IMG/VR virus record: IMGVR_UViG_2711768040_000017
Reading direction: 5' to 3' (one strand)
Source of the DNA: a virus
Lineage: Duplodnaviria; Heunggongvirae; Uroviricota; Caudoviricetes
Length of the DNA stretch: 19,081 bases
Shown: piece after piece, positions 1-17,196 of the stretch
Position numbering within the stretch: the stretch's first letter is position 1
How the letters are laid out: each line of letters starts with the position of its first letter
Translations under genes and position numbers: made by a program
Notes under the pieces: generated by a model
What the model saw: the letters and a program-made list of their open reading frames with translations, nothing else
Databases searched by the model: none
What the model was told of the DNA's origin: nothing

Positions 1-2667
1 TCAGCTGATACTGATGCCTGCGGTGGCTTTCTTCATCACCACAACCAGCAAATCGCTGATACTTGCTGTGGGATACCAGTCATTTACCAGCCATGCTGAC
101 ACCGAAAACTCCAGCGTCATGTGGCCGTGACCAGCTGGCATATCAATAACACCACTGTAAATCAGCGTATTATCCAGCGCGGTACGGTTATAAATTTCAG
201 CACCATTTTTCTTCACTATCAGGCGGCATGAGGAGTAAATATCAGTATGCTCTCTCTCATGTTTAGCACCGCTGAATGCCACCGCCGGAATAACAATCTG
301 CCGGTCAAACGGCTGATCGTCATAAATCCTGACGGTAATGGTCCCTGATGGCCACCGCTCCGGTGCCCGGGAGTCCCGCGGGAAAGCCTTACCCACTGTT
401 TTGACAATATCGCCTTCAATCTGGTTGGCTGACAGTTTCCCTTTAATCTGACAGTTCTCATTTATCGTAACGTTGTTGAGCGTCCCGGCGTTCGCATTCA
501 CACTGCCACTGATATCTGCATTTTTAGCGGTCAGCTTTCCGTCCGGTGTCATGGAAAATGCAGGAGGATTACCGCCGCTGGTAATGGTGGGAGCCGTCAG
601 ATATTTCAGGAACACTTCATTCATGAATATCTGATCACCCTGACCAACAAACATCGGTTTTGTGTTGCCATTTGCAGGATTAATCATCGCAATCCTGTCT
701 GCCGCCAGCAGCACCTGACTCTGCATGCCGTCGGGGGTGTTCTCAATACCGGCACCGATACCCGCGATATAAAGGCGTCCGTCCTGCATCTGCTGCAGCT
801 TCACAGCCCACATGCTGTTCAGATTATTATTTGTATCAACCTGAACCTTCTGTATCTGCTGGATCGCTGCACTCTGGTCTTCCAGTTTCTTATTGACGGT
901 CTGTGTGATTTCATTGCTGACATCCGTAATGGACGTCCTGATTTCAGCCAGGTCAGGCGCAAGCTGACCGTTATCAATCTGCGTCCACAGCTCCTGAGCC
1001 AGATGGGTTTTCCCTATCTCGCCTTTGAAAAAATCCAGATAGCCGGATGCGTCATCACTCGGCTGACCAACAGCCTCCACGAATGCCGATTTGCCAACGG
1101 TGTTCACACTGCGAACGTAAAAATAATAATTATGGCCCGGCCTGATATTGATACTGGCGGCTATCCAGTACAGCGCCGTACCAAGATAGCGGGCTGTGGT
1201 TTCAACCTGCCTGATATCCGCAATCCGCTTTTCCGAGAACCAGAACTCAAACTGTACCGTCGGGTCATAAACGGCAAGATGCGGCGTGGCGGTTATCTGA
1301 AAATAGCCCGGCGTCAGCTCAAGCCGCGACGGCACTGCAGGTGCGGCAATCCGGAACGATACCGATGCCGGATCGCCCTGCTGCCCCCACGCATTTACCG
1401 CCCGGACTGTCAGCCTGTAGTTCCCTGGCGCCAGCTGCGTGAAGCGGTATGTGGTTTCCGTCGTCCGGGCCGTGCTGACCAGCCGCTCACTGCCGTCATC
1501 CGCTGCCACGGTCAGGCGAAGCAGGAAGCTCACGCCCTTCACCACCTTCGGCGTGTCCCAGCGCGCCAGCACCTGATATTCCCCGCTGTCTGCGGTGACT
1601 TCGGCGGTCAGGTGCTGCACCGCTGGCGGCGTGACACCATTCACCGTGCCGCTCTGGTCGCCGTCAAAGTGCGCCCCGTTATCCACGATGGCTTCTTTTT
1701 CCGGTACATGCTGCACGGCAGTGATGGCATACGTGCCGTCATCGTTCTCACGGATACTCACACAGCGGAACAGGCGCTGGCGCAGCGTCGGCAGCTTCAG
1801 CCCCCACACACTGTATTCTGCAACGCCGTCAGGAACCCGGTTCACTTTCACCTTAAGTCCGTCGGTGACGGACTGAACCTCCACGCTGACCGGATTACCA
1901 CTTCCGTCAACCAGGCTTATCAGCGTGGTACCGGAGGATGGCAGCGTGATTTCACGGTCGAGCGTCAGCGTCCGGGTCTGGCTGTTCACCGCCAGCACGC
2001 GACCACCGGTGCTGATACCGGCATAGTCATCATCGCAGATTTCAATGACATCCCCCGGTACATGGCGAAGCCCTTCCGCACCCACGCTGAAGTCCACGGT
2101 CTGCGTCTCCAGCAGTTCCGTTTTAATCAGCCACAGCCCGGCGCGGTGTGCCTGCCCCCGGCTGGTACAGCCAAAGGCATCCATCTTCGTGACATTACGA
2201 CCGTAACGGGCAATGGCCTGCGTATCTTCAACAAGCTCTGTCGCCGTCTCCCAGCCGTTGTCCGGGTCAATCCAGTTCACCTCAACGGCATTATGGCGGT
2301 CCTTCAGGGCGCTGAAGCTGTAGCGGAACGGCGCGCCATCATCCGGCATCACCACATTACTGCGGTTATAGGTGATATGTTCTGTCGCTGACCACGTTCG
2401 ACACACCACTCTGATTTTTCTGTTAATACCCGGCGGGCGCCAAAAAAAAGATTTATAGCCTTCATGCCGGGCTAAAAATTTTTCAAATGAATCACGTTCA
2501 TTCGCCTCAACTTTGAAATCACAGGTGAAAACGCGCAGAGAATGATTAAGTCCATTTGGACTTCGTTGCTCATAACCATCGCCAAATCTTACAGTTTTTA
2601 TCGATGGTTTATTTTCTGTTTTCATTCCATCCTCTGGTAACCAGTGAAATTCTTCCGTATTAGCCAC
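1..2667 (-). CDS. J: Chimeric tail-tip ORF: gpM-like N-terminus (~95 aa) fused in frame to the C-terminal ~790 aa of host-specificity protein J (central tail fibre). Probable GTG start overlapping the tape-measure stop.
   Basis: N-terminus ([31 protein letters not shown]) parallels lambda gpM motif for motif. From ..[37 protein letters not shown].. onward it is near-identical, as recalled, to lambda gpJ up to a diverged C-terminal receptor-binding end. Stop codon at 1-3. Confidence 0.8.
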
Positions 2668-5600
2668 TTAACATTCCCCCATCACGTCGCATATTTAACA
2701 GATTGCCCTGCACCCGCTGATCAACCATCCCCATAAGTGCTTTTATTGCCTGAGGGCCAATCTCTCCATTCTGGCCGTCATTTTGAATAGTGATTTGGTA
2801 TACGGGGGCATAGGTAATATCTCCGCCTCCATTACCACTTTTACTATTAATAGCTCTGACACCAAGAGAACCATCGGAAGTTCGTGTTAATGGCATAATG
2901 GCTTCCGGTCCAGCCTCACCAAAAACACCAGCCCCTTTTGCAAAAGCAAAAAATTGCGGGGAATCATAAATACCGTTCGAATACGTGCTCAATGACGGAG
3001 ACTCATAAACACCGCCCTTTGCATTCGGAATAAATTTACTAATAGCACTCCCGATAGTTCCTAAAATCCCCCCAGAAGAACTGTTACTAATGCTGTCGAA
3101 AATCCCAGTAATTGAAGCCTTTAATGCTATTCGACTAAGATCCGAAATCACGGAAGTAGCGAAAGAACGAAAATTTGCCTTGCCTGTCGTGACAAAATCA
3201 CCCAGCGCATCGGTCATCCCATCAAACATCTGAGTCGTGGTTGATTTTATCTGCTCACTGATATCCTTAGTGTCATCCAGCCAGTTATTGAATCCCTGGG
3301 AGGCACCACTAACCCAGTCTCCTGCCTGAATATCGAGCTGCTCGTTTTTCTGTCTGACAATTTCTTTTTCCCGTTCCAGAGCATCATTCAGAGCCTGCAT
3401 TTTCTCTTGAAAAACATGATCTGACATTCCACGGGATTTATCTGCATAGTCACGTTCAAGTTGCAGACGCTGATTGTTATATCCATGTTCAATCCGCAGT
3501 AATTCCTGCTGGCGTTGCTGATTTTTATCGCCAACCCCATAACCAGCAATCTGAATATCATACCCCTGCTGACGATTATCAATCGAAGCCTGCAATGAAT
3601 CACGCCATGCTGTTATTTCGGCGGATTCCTTGATTAGCCTGTTATTTTTTTCAATCGCAACATTTTTCTCCATCAACGTGGTTATTTCTTCCCGGTGTAA
3701 GAGAAGCGATTTCTGATCCTGGGTTAATTTCGATGATGGTCGTGACTCTAGGTCGGCAATCCGCTGACGCCACTTAACCAGTTCCTGTTCAGAGGAACTT
3801 AATTTAACGGTCAACTCAACTTGTGAACTTAGTAACGCATTCTGTTGATTCAGATGATCAATCATTCGTTGGGCTGCATCATCAGAATAATCTTTCGCCT
3901 TTGGTTGCTTTGGATCTTTATAACGCTCATTTATTTGAGCGATAAGATTATTATATTCTTCCTTTGAATACTGATTCTTTAGCTTTTCCAGTTTTGCAAG
4001 TTCACTAGCTCTCTGCTGCTCCCGGGTCTGATATTGTTTTGAAAAGGCATCTGCTCTCTGTCTGAGTTCAATTCCTTCCTGTTGTCGCTTGTTGTAATCG
4101 TTTATTGATGAATTTAGTACGTCCTGAGCAATTTTTTCTGCTTGAAGTACGCCCAATTGCTGCTTTAATCGTGCCAGCCTTTTATTTTGAGCTCCGCCAT
4201 CTCCAATGCCACCTAACCCGAAAACTCCGGATCGGGTATTTTTTTCTATTTCATCAATTTGACGGAGAACATCTGAGATTTTTTGATCAAGGGAGGCCTC
4301 ACGGCCAATATCCAGCATGGAATCCCATGCCCATTTTGCGGAGTCTGCGACAGCTTTCCATGCAGTCTCAAGATAACCAAGATTTTCTTTAATCTGGTTG
4401 GTGCGCTGGATCATTGAGGATGAGTATTCTTCTGTCGCAATGCGGGCGGCCTCCTGCTGGTTCCCTTCATCCTGTAGCGCCTTAATCTGGTTATAAGTCG
4501 CAAGTGTCAGAAAATGGTACTGATCATTAAGTTTTGATATGGCACTGACAGGATCCTTTGCAATTTCATTGAAGTCATTAACCAGTTGTTCGGTTGATAT
4601 TCCTGTTACTTCGCTCGTTTTTACTATCGCTGTCGTCACTTGCTCCAGCGAACTGCTCGCTACCTTTCCCGAACGCACAAGCTGATTTAATACTGCCGCC
4701 GCAGCACCAGTTGTCGAATCAGCCGCATTCCCGGCACGTTGAGCTAAATCGCCCAATTGCCCGCTGGTTGTCCCCAACTGATTTCCGGTAAGAATAAGAG
4801 ATTTATTAAATTCGTCCTGCTCCTGAGAGCCTTTATAGTAAGCCAGTCCTAAGACCCCAACGGCTGCTGCGGCCAGGGTAAAAGGATTAATTAATCCCAG
4901 CACATAAGAACCTACCCCTTTGATCGCCGGGCCAATCCCACCGAACATATCTTTTAGCTGGCCGCCCTGCTGCATTAACACCATAAATGGCGACTGACCA
5001 GTGGACAACCCAACAACAATATCCGTCATTTGTGCAGGCAACATGCGCATAGCAAAAGCCGTTTGTTTTGCCGACATTCCGGTTTTGCTTAATTGTGATT
5101 GAGTAACCTCAAGCTCACTCCGCATAGCACGAAGTTTTCCAGAAAGCTCCTCATACATTTCAGGAGAAAGCATCCCCTTAGCTTTTGCTTCATTGAGCTG
5201 TTTCTGTTGTTCTACCAGACGATTAAAAGCAGTTCCGACAGGATCAAGTTGAGCAATCAGACGTTGCAAAGCAACAACCTGTTCATCATGCGCTTTTGCT
5301 GCTTCTCGCTCTGCCTGAGCCTCTCCGGTAAGCTCTCGCCGTGTTTCCTGTATTTTTCGGCTATAATTCTCAAACTGAGAACCATTTATTTTCCCGGATG
5401 CAAACGCAGCATTAAGTTCATCATGCTGTTGTTCAAGATTTCTTAGCGCCGCAGCCAGAGGGTCGATCTTGTCCAGCATTCTTTGAAAGGCCTGAGCCTG
5501 CGCTTCCTGCTGGGCGGCAGCAAGTTTTCCGGCCTTCTCGGCTTCTCTCTGCGCTTGCGCAACCCCGCTCAATTCCTCTGTGGTTTCATTAAGTTTACGG

Positions 5601-5893
5601 ACAAGAAATTCATATTCTTCTTTATCAATAAGCCCTTTATCGAAAAATTTCTTTAATTCAGAATAGCGTCGACCGACAGTATCAATTGCGGCACCAACTG
5701 GATCAATAGCTGCTTTTAATTTTGCGAGCGCGTTCTTCTCATCTTCTGTTGCCTTAGTCACTTTCCCTGCGCTATTTGCAGCAGTTTCCCCAGCCTGCGT
5801 CATTTTGACTAATGAGGAGGTCAGATTGTCAGCATTATTTTTCGCTCCAGTGCTATCAATAATTATTGCGAGACGCGAGGTTTGCTCTGCCAT
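2660..5893 (-). CDS. Tail tape measure protein (gpH-like), 1077 aa
   Basis: Long coiled-coil-rich N-terminal half with three tandem ~75-aa repeats, a hydrophobic/Gly-rich central segment, and a position directly downstream of the G/GT chaperone pair and upstream of the M/J tail-tip gene. AGGAG Shine-Dalgarno 8-9 nt before the ATG. Confidence 0.9.
5083..5710 (-). repeat. Three diverged tandem coding repeats (~225 bp each) inside the tape measure gene
   Basis: Protein repeats [12 protein letters not shown].., [19 protein letters not shown].., [19 protein letters not shown].. each followed by ..AQAxREAxKA. The DNA shows the repeated ggatcaa/gggtcga cores. Coordinates approximate. Confidence 0.5.
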
Positions 5894-6058: not shown

Positions 6059-6379
6059 CTACACACACTGCTCCTGAAAATACTGGTCATCCAGTGCAAA
6101 GATCACTGCTTCAAATTCATCGCGCTCAATCAATACCGGATGAGTGGCTAAATATTCATTTATCTCTGTCAGAGATAAAGGCAAAGGCACCCCAGCCATT
6201 CCAGCATAACGTCGGGCACGGGATATTACCGAATAGGCGTACAACAACTCCTTAAGCACCGGGTCTATTTCTGGTTCCGGTATCGGTGGCAACCTGAGTT
6301 TTTCTCGCTTCCATCTTGCCTTTTCCCCCCTTTCTCCCCCGAACTCCGATAACCACCGCTGGGCAGCTATGGCTTTTTT
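6059..6379 (-). CDS. T portion of tail assembly chaperone GT, reached by -1 frameshift from G; not independently initiated
   Basis: After slipping at aaaaaag, the -1 frame (gcc ata gct gcc cag cgg ...) runs uninterrupted into the 77-aa ORF frame (ttg cca ccg ata ccg = LPPIPEPEID) and ends 165 bp upstream of the tape measure gene. Confidence 0.55.
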   Translation of the reverse strand, partial: KKAIAAQRWLSEFGGERGEKARWKREKLRLPPIPEPEIDPVLKELLYAYSVISRARRYAGMAGVPLPLSLTEINEYLATHPVLIERDEFEAVIFALDDQYFQEQCV

Positions 6380-6801
6380 ATCGTATCCTGCTTCTGCTGC
6401 TCTTTACCCTGGGCGATGCTGGCTGCTTCTGCAAGGATCTGCCAGTACAACTCTGGATTCTGCTTAAGCAGCGCGATCCCTCGTTCTGCCGTATATTCCA
6501 GTGCAACCTCAACACCATTAACCAGTTCACCAACCCCTTTCCAGTCTTTCAGCAGATAACGAGCGGCATTATCAATGAGTAAATCATCAACAGAATCCAC
6601 CTCGGAAACCTTTGAAATATCAAACTCCTTCGTTCCGACGTGCAAACTGGCATCCATTTTCTCAATGTGGCGACGGATTAATGCATTACGGGAGCGATAC
6701 TGATCGTTATCGCTGCTTGCCACCAACAGTTTTAACCCGTCTATCCAGACTGCATGAGCAATTGATTCATCACGCAGCCGTTCATTCACGGTTTGCATCA
6801 T
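6367..6801 (-). CDS. Tail assembly chaperone (gpG-like), 144 aa
   Basis: Acidic small protein immediately upstream of the tape measure gene; its last codons (ata aaa aag cca tag) contain a canonical slippery heptamer. MMQ start, ATG at 6799-6801. Confidence 0.55.
   Translation of the reverse strand: MMQTVNERLRDESIAHAVWIDGLKLLVASSDNDQYRSRNALIRRHIEKMDASLHVGTKEFDISKVSEVDSVDDLLIDNAARYLLKDWKGVGELVNGVEVALEYTAERGIALLKQNPELYWQILAEAASIAQGKEQQKQDTIKKP
6373..6379 (-). other. Programmed -1 ribosomal frameshift slippery heptamer A_AAA_AAG (G to GT)
   Basis: Plus-strand ctttttt at 6373-6379 is aaaaaag on the minus strand, two codons before the G stop; the -1 frame is open for ~100 further codons. Confidence 0.55.
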
Positions 6802-10570: not shown

Positions 10571-10822
10571 TTAGTCCTGATTTTTATCCACCCTGAGTAG
10601 TTCGCGCAGAGCAAAGGCATCCCCTTTTCTGGCAAGCTTAAACAATGCCGCTCGTAACTCGGCTTCACCTTTCGCTCTGCCCTTACGGATGGCCGCATAA
10701 AAATCTGTCATTGCTTCCCGATTTTCTTTCAGTCGGTTCAGATCAACATCCAGAACGTCAGCGATTTGTTGTGCAGTCATCCGGCACGCTGCCAGAGACT
10801 CGACTTTCGAATACGGAATCAT
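10571..10822 (-). CDS. Small hypothetical protein (83 aa) with an HTH-like segment
   Basis: GGGGGTGA Shine-Dalgarno 4 nt before the ATG at 10822; MTAQQIADVLDVDLNRL resembles a helix-turn-helix. Overlaps the upstream gene end by 65 nt. Confidence 0.3.
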   Translation of the reverse strand: MIPYSKVESLAACRMTAQQIADVLDVDLNRLKENREAMTDFYAAIRKGRAKGEAELRAALFKLARKGDAFALRELLRVDKNQD

Positions 10823-11714
10823 TTGTCACCCCCATTGATATGCAGGGTGTCTTCTTCCTGTATTTTTCGTGAAGGATTTTTACTGCAGCGTTGTTCCAGG
10901 TGACCTGATGGTGAATGCGTTTATGGCTGGCACCCATCAGTGAGATTTTTACGCACGACGGCGAATACATGACGGAGTAAAAACTTTTAACGTAGGTTCC
11001 GGAATCCAGATACAGCTCGGTCATTCCGCCGCTGTTTTTCTGCGTCTGTTTCTGCCCTAACTGGACAGCACCGATCGTCATAAACAATTCACCACAGCGA
11101 CCGAGATTCGTGTACGTATTCACATCCTCGTTAATGCGCCCCATGAATGAGAACGGTCGATCAACCGAACAGATAAAGCTGTTCATTGCCTTGCGTTTCA
11201 CCCACGAAGCATGGCCGCCATTGTCACCAAGAAAATCCCCGCCCTGCGACATAGCGATGGAAAGCGCGGGTATTGATTCGTAATACGCCAGCATTTCAGA
11301 AAGGATCGCATCCAGTTTCCTTATCGGGAAATAGGCCTGGTCATAGTTGCGATCCACCCGAAACTGGAACTCGTGATAATCATCATCGAGCTGAATGAAG
11401 TATTTACACCCGACCAGTTTTGCCAGGTCGAAACAGGCATTACGGGCGTAAAAAATTGAGCGGCGATCACCAAAATTATCGGCTTCGTCAAAACGACTGG
11501 CAATATCGGCTTTGGAAAATACCAGCACCTGTTCACCAAATTCAGCCATGTACTGATGCCGTGTCTTATCTTCATCATCAACAACGATAAAAATTTTCCC
11601 GGTATAGCCAGCACGACGCAACGTCCGGTAAGTCAGAACTTTGTCCGGTCGCCCGTGAGTCAGAATAAAGGCGCAAAAATCATCACGCATATTCCTCCTC
11701 CTCCTCCCCGCCAT
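10758..11714 (-). CDS. Hypothetical protein (318 aa) with DXD-type acidic motifs; possible nucleotide-sugar transferase-like fold
   Basis: Hydrophobic strand then Gly (CAFILTHGRPDK), then IFIVVDDEDK and YFIQLDDDYHEF; translationally overlaps the ParB-like gene upstream. Assignment is by motif only. Confidence 0.3.
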   Translation of the reverse strand: MAGRRRRNMRDDFCAFILTHGRPDKVLTYRTLRRAGYTGKIFIVVDDEDKTRHQYMAEFGEQVLVFSKADIASRFDEADNFGDRRSIFYARNACFDLAKLVGCKYFIQLDDDYHEFQFRVDRNYDQAYFPIRKLDAILSEMLAYYESIPALSIAMSQGGDFLGDNGGHASWVKRKAMNSFICSVDRPFSFMGRINEDVNTYTNLGRCGELFMTIGAVQLGQKQTQKNSGGMTELYLDSGTYVKSFYSVMYSPSCVKISLMGASHKRIHHQVTWNNAAVKILHEKYRKKTPCISMGVTNDSVFESRVSGSVPDDCTTNR

Positions 11715-12477
11715 GCATGATCTCCACCATGCGCTGCGTCATTCGGACAAATCCATTTTCAATAGCCTGCTGATAATCAATGATCACCAGCGCCGACTCC
11801 TCGAAAAGGCACTGAATTTCAGCGGGGGCATGAGCGTAATAGTCCGCAATTCTGCTGAAATTAAACACTGTGTGACGTTCTGCCGCACACAGGAGGAATT
11901 TCTCAATATCAGGATCAAGGGACGCCGAACGTATCCGGCTGATCAGCTCCTGAGTTTTCGTATCGTCGTACAGTTCACTGATATCCGGTTTACCGCCCGA
12001 CGGCTCATAAACAGGCGTATCAATTTTCGTCGTATACGGCTCCTCCTCATTTCCTGTACCGGGCAAAACATCCGTCAACAGTTCATCAATTTCTGTCGGG
12101 ATGAAGCCTGTCAGGGAGACATCAAAATCAGCATTGATTAGGTCCGACAGCTCCATCCGCAACAGATCTTCATCCCAGCCAGCATTCATCGGCAGGCGAT
12201 TATCTGCCAGGCGGTACGCCTTTTTCTGCTCATCCGTCAGGCCAGACAGAACAATGACCGGAACAGAATCCATTTTGAGCATTTCAGCCGCCATAACACG
12301 ACCGTGACCCGCAATAATTTCGCCCTTTTCGTCAATCAGCACCGGATTAGTCCAGCCGAATTGCTTAATACTTTCTACCAGTTGTGCCACCTGCTCAGGG
12401 CTGTGCGTCCTGGCGTTGTGCGCATACGGTGACAATTCTTGTAATGGGCGATAGACTATCTTTAATTTCTCGCTCAT
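11683..12477 (-). CDS. ParB-like nuclease domain protein (264 aa)
   Basis: N-terminal ParB/sulfiredoxin-type motif ..NPVLIDEKGEIIAGHGRVMAA.. and acidic C-terminus (GGEEEEEYA). Confidence 0.7.
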   Translation of the reverse strand: MSEKLKIVYRPLQELSPYAHNARTHSPEQVAQLVESIKQFGWTNPVLIDEKGEIIAGHGRVMAAEMLKMDSVPVIVLSGLTDEQKKAYRLADNRLPMNAGWDEDLLRMELSDLINADFDVSLTGFIPTEIDELLTDVLPGTGNEEEPYTTKIDTPVYEPSGGKPDISELYDDTKTQELISRIRSASLDPDIEKFLLCAAERHTVFNFSRIADYYAHAPAEIQCLFEESALVIIDYQQAIENGFVRMTQRMVEIMHGGEEEEEYA

Positions 12478-15509: not shown

Positions 15510-15634
15510 AATAAAATGTATTTCTCTGATATTATGTTTATTTGTATTAGCTCAGACTTGACATCACAGGTTTCGTATATAGAACATCATCAAATCTGTC
15601 AGTTTGCTATGAATGAGATATAGTACTTGAAGAG

Positions 15635-16030
15635 CTAACCTCGCATGTCAAAGCCAGATTTCTGAAAATCTCTGTAGACTTCCGGATTGTTGAAGGCCGG
15701 AAATTTGGCTTTATGAGCTGCGGACTTTATCGCTTCGCAATAGGCTTTATCACCGTTACTGGTAGATATTTTTAACGCCGTGCCATCCTGAGAGAATTCC
15801 ATATGCAACCTGCATTTTTTCCCTTTCCAGTTATGCGGCTCATCAAGTTTGGCATTAATTGCAGCTCTGATTCCCCGCGCTTGCGCCCCCCATTCATCCT
15901 GATCATCCCAGCGTCCTGAACTGCAACTACCTGTAGCAGTAGTTTTGTGGCAATCTGAAGGGTGTAAAGGTGTGCATCCCGCAACAAAACCGACCCAAAA
16001 AGTCAACATAACGATTTTCTTTAATCCCAC
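15635..16030 (-). CDS. Lipoprotein (131 aa) with a diverged TolA C-terminal domain III-like domain; GTG start
   Basis: Signal peptide MGLKKIVMLTFWVGFVAGC (lipobox VAGC); GAGGAG Shine-Dalgarno 6 nt upstream. C-terminal pattern I.AAINAKL...W.GKKC.L...F..DG....S...GD.A.C.A...A...A.FP....PEVY..F parallels the paralog upstream and TolA-III. Confidence 0.55.
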   Translation of the reverse strand: MGLKKIVMLTFWVGFVAGCTPLHPSDCHKTTATGSCSSGRWDDQDEWGAQARGIRAAINAKLDEPHNWKGKKCRLHMEFSQDGTALKISTSNGDKAYCEAIKSAAHKAKFPAFNNPEVYRDFQKSGFDMRG

Positions 16031-16180: not shown

Positions 16181-16609
16181 TCAGGGTTTAAAATCCAGCA
16201 CCCCATTTTGAAATACTTTATATACTTCCGGCGAAGGGGGGGCAGGTATATCAGCATTCTTTATCGCATTCATCGCTTCACGACATAAATCGAGGTCTCC
16301 ACTTTCTCTTTTAACCTCCAGTAGAAGGCCATTCGGGGCCATATGCATTCTCAGTGTACACTCTTTTCCTGAATACTTACTCGCATCCCCGAACTGTTTT
16401 TCGATGGCGCTCTTGATTTGATGGGCATACAGACGGATATCCTCACTAACATCAGAAGTACGTTCAGATGAACTCACATACTGTGTCTCTATTGCTTTAT
16501 CGGAGTAATATGATGTACGGTCATGATAATTTGTCGATACAGCATCAGTGCACCCGATAATAATCCCACTAATAATCAACGTAAGAATTGATGCGCTACG
16601 AAAACCCAT
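16181..16609 (-). CDS. Lipoprotein (142 aa) with a TolA C-terminal domain III-like domain
   Basis: Signal peptide MGFRSASILTLIISGIIIGC (lipobox IIGC, Thr at +2). The C-terminal 85 aa (YAHQIKSAIEKQFGDASKYSGKECTLRMHMAPNGLLLEVKRESGDLDLCREAMNAIKNADIPAPPSPEVYKVFQNGVLDFKP) align almost residue for residue with the E. coli TolA C-terminus as recalled (YAGQIKSAIESKFYDASSYAGKTCTLRIKLAPDGMLLDIKPEGGDPALCQAALAAAKLAKIPKPPSQAVYEVFKNAPLDFKP). Confidence 0.7.
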   Translation of the reverse strand: MGFRSASILTLIISGIIIGCTDAVSTNYHDRTSYYSDKAIETQYVSSSERTSDVSEDIRLYAHQIKSAIEKQFGDASKYSGKECTLRMHMAPNGLLLEVKRESGDLDLCREAMNAIKNADIPAPPSPEVYKVFQNGVLDFKP

Positions 16610-16668: not shown

Positions 16669-17196
16669 ACAGCGAATCAGATCAAATAAAACGCACATTT
16701 GTTAACATTTACACAAAGTCTGCGTGGGATATTCTGAAAGAATATCCATAATGTGGAGAGAATCTATTGAAGTGCATGGTGCCGGGTGCCTCCCGGTGAA
16801 CAAAATGTTCGTGATACCTGTCGGCGACAGAAAAGGTTAATGGTATCACCCCACCGCACAGGGGGATTCACCATGCAGGAGTTTTCTTAGCAAACTCACT
16901 GCGCGCCCGGCAACTCCCAACCACATAAAATGCGGAGTTTGTGGTATTTATGCATATAACTCGCAGGAATTATCTTAAAAAACTGATGTCGATCCGGATT
17001 AAAAAGAAGCAGGTCATCATCAGATGACTGGAAAAAAGGAAAAAAAAAATACTCATCATACAGTTTTGATTGCAGGGATGAGCCTGCTATGCACAATATG
17101 CAGAATATAAGCAAGATAAAAATATGCAGGCATATTATTTCGGATTTTGTTATTAACACAACCTTTTTAATAATCATTTGGCATACAATAAACCAG

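Follow-up and report, generated by a model that had tools for sequence, protein, structure and literature searches.

An ORF of 888 aa that joins genes homologous to M and J of the lambda tail tip very probably arose by a microhomology-mediated internal deletion in a decaying Rac prophage of Escherichia coli, with both parts remaining in frame by chance. This chimeric ORF (2667..4 on the minus strand, with a GTG start and its stop codon at 3..1) is located at the left end of the window, i.e., the whole stretch of 19,081 nucleotides from the virus record IMGVR_UViG_2711768040_000017 that was analysed.

The window, 99.99% identical to strain 101EVA (2 mismatches over 19,081 bases), corresponds to the late region of a lambdoid prophage of the Rac family from E. 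coli and reads on the minus strand. On this strand, genes of the Nin region and a Q-like gene are followed by two small TolA-like ORFs, the lysis cassette, the cargo gene trkG, ynaK (encoding a ParB_N domain), a gene for a TAGT-like glycosyltransferase, the genes of the small and large terminase subunits, the portal gene, ydaY and an intact tape measure gene (2660..5893, minus strand, 1077 aa), which is placed directly upstream of the 888-aa ORF. The hallmarks of Rac, namely trkG, ynaK, ydaY, tfaR, and pinR together with the flanking genes ttcA and uspF/ompN, are found in strains 101EVA, GPEC1405, and CI5, and the Rac prophage of K-12 aligns at 95–99.9%. Host-like genes encoding a DUF1971 protein, an MFS transporter and a gamma-glutamylcyclotransferase adjoin the right end of the window, and the left half of the prophage was suspected to be absent on this account. 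This was ruled out, since the same genes are cargo within the prophage of CI5, where the replication, recET, and int genes are located farther out.

YnaK (12477..11683, minus strand) is encoded at full length (264 aa), whereas the K-12 copy is only an 87-aa stub, and PGAP records the gene as a pseudogene. The gene that comes after it (11714..10758, minus strand) matches the Pfam family TAGT (TET-associated glycosyltransferase, E = 6e-35) and is named hypothetical or 'GREB1-related' by PGAP; no TET/JBP gene accompanies it within the window. Both genes are situated just upstream of the small terminase gene. Between the Q-like gene and the holin gene, the ORFs 16609..16181 and 16030..15635 (both on the minus strand) are annotated by PGAP as TolA or TolA C-terminal domain proteins, and the counterpart of the former in CI5 is truncated. 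Moreover, ydaY (6726..6367, minus strand) is followed by an ORF of 66–77 aa (6292..6059, minus strand) with a weak match to Phage_TAC_18. In the intact parental prophage, this pair is flanked by the tail tube gene on one side and the tape measure gene on the other and, thus, occupies the position of the lambda tail assembly chaperones G/GT. Judged from this gene position, YdaY, still 'uncharacterized' in K-12, is probably a tail assembly chaperone.

The chimeric ORF, whose start overlaps the stop of the tape measure gene by 8 nt, is composed of residues 1–98 of the M homologue, a Thr-Tyr pair common to both parents and residues 372–1159 of J. The M-derived part (2374..2667, minus strand) encodes a homologue of the distal tail protein and is 99.9% identical to the M region of CI5. 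In Pfam, residues 5–96 of the ORF match positions 1–92 of the 108 positions of Phage_min_tail (PF05939, the lambda M family) with a score of 95.7 bits against a gathering cut-off of 39 bits, whereas the intact parental M matches positions 1–108, and the M part is a truncated member of this family. In BLASTP, residues 7–94 are 44% identical to lambda M (E = 3e-26). A preliminary description, made from the sequence alone, had taken the N-terminal ~95 aa to be gpM-like; the likeness is borne out by these matches, although the length has to be corrected to 98–100 aa of a 112-aa homologue, of which the last 12 residues are absent. Encoded behind the tape measure gene, this part continues into J sequence; it neither precedes an L gene nor forms a stand-alone protein of ~110 aa.

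The J-derived part (1..2366, minus strand), which lacks the first 369–371 residues of J, contains a truncated Phage-tail_3 hub, two FNIII/Ig domains, a tip fibre and a C-terminal receptor-binding domain. The Phage-tail_3 match directly adjoins the M domain (ORF residues 94–227, profile positions 35–162 of 164) and is succeeded by Ig_J, Ig_J_second, Phage_Tail_Tip, and Ig_GpJ_C, all of them matched end to end (E = 1e-30 to 1e-42). By contrast, the N-terminal hub domains are incomplete, with FNIII-A_GpJ absent and Phage-tail_3 beginning at profile position 35, whereas the intact parental J carries FNIII-A at residues 86–207 and Phage-tail_3 at 330–498. Both breakpoints fall inside folded domains, the M and Phage-tail_3 profiles of Pfam each being interrupted there. 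Compared with lambda J (residues 370–1132), this part is 75% identical in BLASTP and preserves the order of hub remainder, FNIII-1, FNIII-2, helical shaft/fibre, and receptor-binding domain. Residue 99 of the ORF pairs with residue 370 of lambda J, and the breakpoint, previously estimated at about residue 340, is actually found at 370–372 in both lambda J and parental J. The last ~140 residues and a stretch at ~556–628 show far lower likeness to lambda J than the remainder, and the receptor-binding end has diverged from the LamB-binding domain of lambda. Retention of the fibronectin-like repeats of J together with a diverged C-terminal end had been recognized in the preliminary description, in agreement with these results.

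The origin of the two parts becomes clear in strain CI5, whose Rac-type prophage, inserted between ttcA/intR and uspF/ompN (NZ_CP011018.1, ~1,022,000–1,075,400), appears to be complete. In this prophage, the tape measure gene is followed by separate genes for M (112 aa), L (232 aa), K (247 aa), I (200 aa), and J (1159 aa), and then by lom, stf, tfaR, and pinR. CI5 and the carrier genomes share the same protein accessions for terS, terL, portal, YdaY, and Lom, and the tape measure accession WP_000840620.1 is common to CI5 and GPEC1405, while 101EVA has WP_053265544.1. The same M-L-K-I-J order at the same chromosomal site is found in strains XJ55, PEC1012, and 7/2, as in lambda, which confirms the gene order expected for intact Rac-like prophages, and none of these four intact relatives possesses a natural single M-J gene. 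Moreover, at least 25 genomes harbour intact gpJ genes whose DNA matches the 2,366 J-derived bases at 100%. XJ55 and PEC1012, where a J sequence with 100% identity appears under another product name, were considered as further truncated forms and discarded, since both encode an intact J of 1159 aa and retain M, L, K, and I. Strain 7/2 was considered as the parent, but it yields a gap of 3,197 bp, since its I gene is frameshifted and its J is only 95% identical; CI5 was used instead.

Alignment of the window with CI5 reveals 99.93–100% identity on each side of an exact gap of 3,198 bp. The sequences removed comprise the last 12 residues of M, all of L (Phage_tail_L), K (JAB and NlpC/P60), and I (Lambda_tail_I), and ~370 N-terminal residues of J, including FNIII-A and the first 40 residues of Phage-tail_3. 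The loss of L, K, I, and the first third of J had been anticipated, and the end of M has to be added to it. Since 3,198 is a multiple of three (3 × 1066), the frames of M and J were joined into one ORF, which substantiates the idea of an internal deletion that stayed in frame.

In a three-way alignment, the match to the M side of the parent extends down to window position 2367 and the match to the J side sets in at 2373, leaving an overlap of 7 nt. This deletion junction (2367..2373, minus strand) is the one remaining copy of a 7-bp repeat, ACCTATA (TATAGGT on the plus strand), that is present twice in the parental locus (L004), at 16796–16802 and 19994–20000. In the parent, the two copies lie at codons 98–100 of M (CAT ATC ACC TAT ACC GAT) and at codons 369–371 of J (GTG TGG ACC TAT AAC CGC). 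The switch from M to J had been located at 2370–2400, where it is indeed found, although the overlap touches only the lower edge of that interval, and the short direct repeat that the preliminary description proposed to look for is present at the joint. An apparent overlap of 11 nt reported by BLAST was rejected as an artefact of gapped extension (ACCTATA-CCG versus ACCTATAACCG), the ungapped overlap being 7 nt. Of 479,145 breakpoint pairs chosen at random in the parental sequence, 0.066% reached an overlap of at least 7 nt (P(>=7) = 6.6e-4) and, thus, the repeat at the junction is very unlikely to be a coincidence.

Deletion between short direct repeats is a classical mutational mechanism that is independent of RecA. 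Spontaneous deletions of this type were reportedly described by Albertini et al. in 1982, and the M::J deletion resembles them in its perfect 7-bp repeat at the endpoints and in the retention of one copy, with nothing atypical. In this event, a Rac-family prophage lost 3,198 bp between the ACCTATA copy near the 3' end of M and the copy at codon 370 of J, probably by RecA-independent illegitimate recombination or replication slippage, a mechanism suggested by the footprint of the repeat only. Retention of the frame represents a one-in-three accident. No evidence contradicting the deletion was found.

A second deletion has affected the same prophage. At window position 6742..6743 (minus strand), 6,058 bp are missing with respect to CI5, with a microhomology of 2 bp at the junction. 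It begins around codon 19 within the minor head gene, stops 17 bp ahead of ydaY and takes out the genes for the minor head, scaffold, major capsid, connector, tail-terminator, and tail-tube proteins. In the absence of head and tail-tube genes, the prophage cannot make virions. Both this deletion and the presence of Rac genes corroborate the earlier view of the ORF as a decay product of a defective prophage of the Rac type. The 6,058-bp deletion is also in frame by chance, generating an ORF of 144 aa (6801..6367, minus strand) that is formed by the N-terminus of the minor head protein, a leader and YdaY. In K-12, a deletion between ynaK and ydaY ends 25 bp from the right end of the 6,058-bp deletion (CI5 coordinates 12451 versus 12426; ydaY was compared at this site between window 6726..6367 and positions 15622–15981 of the K-12 locus, L006). 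This proximity may point to a site prone to deletion immediately upstream of ydaY, or it may be coincidental.

The distribution of the chimera is narrow. When 5,426 complete E. coli genomes were searched by megablast with the region around the junction, the M::J junction was recovered in only two of them, namely 101EVA (human, Singapore) and GPEC1405 (chicken, USA). Some portion of the query is found in 4,434 genomes, and the other top-listed ones stop at the end of the M-derived part. J itself is widespread: 3,654 of the 5,426 genomes contain a place covering at least 80% of the 2,366-bp J-derived query, with a median of 2 and a maximum of 16 J-like places per genome. In public collections, the exact 888-aa protein is found on 35 contigs and a version of 874 aa, starting at an internal ATG, on 44 contigs; the carrier assemblies are indexed in 48 and 61 blocks of a public collection, where the ORF is intact. 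The exact 80-mers of both junctions (M::J and 6,058-bp) are present in all 20 carrier loci examined, that is, the two complete genomes and 18 contexts from assemblies of various samples in NCBI, ENA, and Logan. This joint presence indicates that the two deletions arose once and were co-inherited in one lineage. The event would be recent, judging by the J-derived protein part, which is 100% identical to the intact J of CI5. Likewise, the intactness of the ORF across carriers fits recent clonal descent, although intactness taken by itself would also be compatible with selection. Further decay is seen downstream of lom (loci L010, L020, L021, and L022, ~13.3–22.6 kb in locus coordinates), where the Rac side tail fibre gene of several carriers is interrupted by a Tn3-family element with tnpA, resolvase, and MCP-like genes; some of these insertions add a TetR, MFS, and EamA set resembling Tn1721 (tetracycline resistance), while other carriers show an IS-like insertion in the side tail fibre gene instead.

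These data also bear on other origins of the ORF. A natural single M-J gene, functional as a domesticated or alternative tail-tip or receptor-binding protein, would account for an uninterrupted ORF whose start is coupled to the stop of the tape measure gene, for its complete FNIII, fibre, and receptor-binding domains and for the exact sequence being found on dozens of contigs. Nevertheless, such a gene is very unlikely and is largely refuted by a parent that, at 99.9–100% identity, keeps five separate genes. Moreover, the breakpoints cut within folded domains, one and the same junction is shared by all carriers, which also lack the capsid and tube genes, and just 2 of 5,426 complete genomes are involved, while zero divergence from intact J means that no signal of selection can be read. 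Recombination between prophages is common, and the number of J-like places per E. coli genome (a median of 2 and up to 16) would offer opportunities for an ectopic exchange in which M came from one lambdoid prophage and J from another. This origin is highly improbable, because both flanks match a single intact prophage at the same locus with 99.9–100% identity, the genes on either side keep the order and orientation of the CI5-type prophage, and the 7 bp shared at the joint are far below the needs of homologous exchange.

Prophage tail genes are repeated within genomes and often misassembled from short reads, so that a collapse between repeated prophage sequences could, in principle, produce a false junction of this kind. 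The chance of such an artefact is negligible and it can be regarded as excluded, given that the same junction occurs in two independent complete genomes and 18 further loci. A different proposal accepts the chimera and ascribes to it a putative activity of its own: expressed from the late operon, it might be a soluble trimeric fibre or receptor-binding fragment acting against related phages, or the intact 3' two-thirds of J might serve as a recombination donor changing the host range of infecting lambdoid phages, and the ORF would be retained for this reason. This proposal is very improbable in both of its forms.

An internal deletion, as favoured above, would leave a product unable to do the work of either parent. 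In cryo-EM structures of the lambda tail tip, gpM forms a hexameric ring in which all 109 residues of the protein are ordered, and below it lies a ring built from the HDI domains of gpL and the hub domains of gpJ (PMC10721106, PMC11101478). The structures of lambda gpM, the distal tail protein, and gpJ, the tip attachment and central fibre protein, are available under PDB entries 8IYK and 8XCG–8XCK. Whereas M and J are two proteins in lambda, encoded with L, K, and I between them, the chimera lacks the HDII-insertion/FNIII-A and other N-terminal hub parts of J as well as the C-terminal 12 residues of M. The M domain is shortened, and the part of the J hub that docks onto the L, I, and M rings is gone. 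Since the M fold is truncated, the J hub parts contacting I are removed and no L, K, or I is encoded, the product is most likely non-functional, to the extent that this can be judged from sequence and from the lambda structures. With its partners absent and the capsid and tail-tube genes lost, the ORF would be a recent, pseudogene-like remnant spread clonally in one E. coli lineage.

The Rac prophage of K-12 (ynaK-ydaY-ynaA/tmpR-lomR) belongs to the same family as the window, shares the attachment site (ttcA ... uspF/ompN) and the cargo gene trkG and has also lost tail-tip and head genes through internal deletions. Unlike the window, K-12 lacks ~11.6 kb from ynaK to ydaY with respect to CI5 and, additionally, ~8.4 kb from about codon 312 of the tape measure gene into lom, so that neither M nor J is left. 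These deletions are larger than the two of the window and independent of them. K-12 Rac is, thus, the more decayed, while the window keeps the terminase, portal, and full tape measure genes in addition to the M::J chimera. The CI5 prophage, in turn, shows 99.9–100% DNA identity to the window outside both deletions but retains M, L, K, I, and J as separate genes and a full head and tail-tube module. The window is, therefore, an intermediate stage of Rac decay between the intact CI5 type and K-12. Rac was reported from 69% of the strains surveyed, and that it is incomplete in K-12 is widely recognized (PMC6379469); the literature on Rac prophage tail deletions yielded general accounts of decay (PMC6379469), and a description of this particular allele was not found there.

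In databases, the chimera is represented in different ways. In RefSeq, PGAP records it as a pair of incomplete pseudogenes, labelled 'phage tail protein, missing C-terminus' and 'phage tail tip protein, missing N-terminus'; the defect is, thus, marked there, but it is not presented as a fusion. The M fragment of PGAP ends at window position 2440, beside an 8-base homopolymer run (2443–2450) that is the same in the parent. In GenBank, the protein is named 'host specificity protein J' or 'DUF1983 domain-containing protein' (e.g., EFB4131098.1 and OXK34204.1), and such entries should not be counted as a functional J or as proof of an intact prophage. Beyond annotation, the significance of the chimera is small, as it reflects ordinary prophage decay and not a new kind of protein. 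Nevertheless, the intact parent, the intermediate with two deletions and the heavily deleted Rac prophage of K-12 make up a clean series for comparing the stepwise decay of this prophage family.
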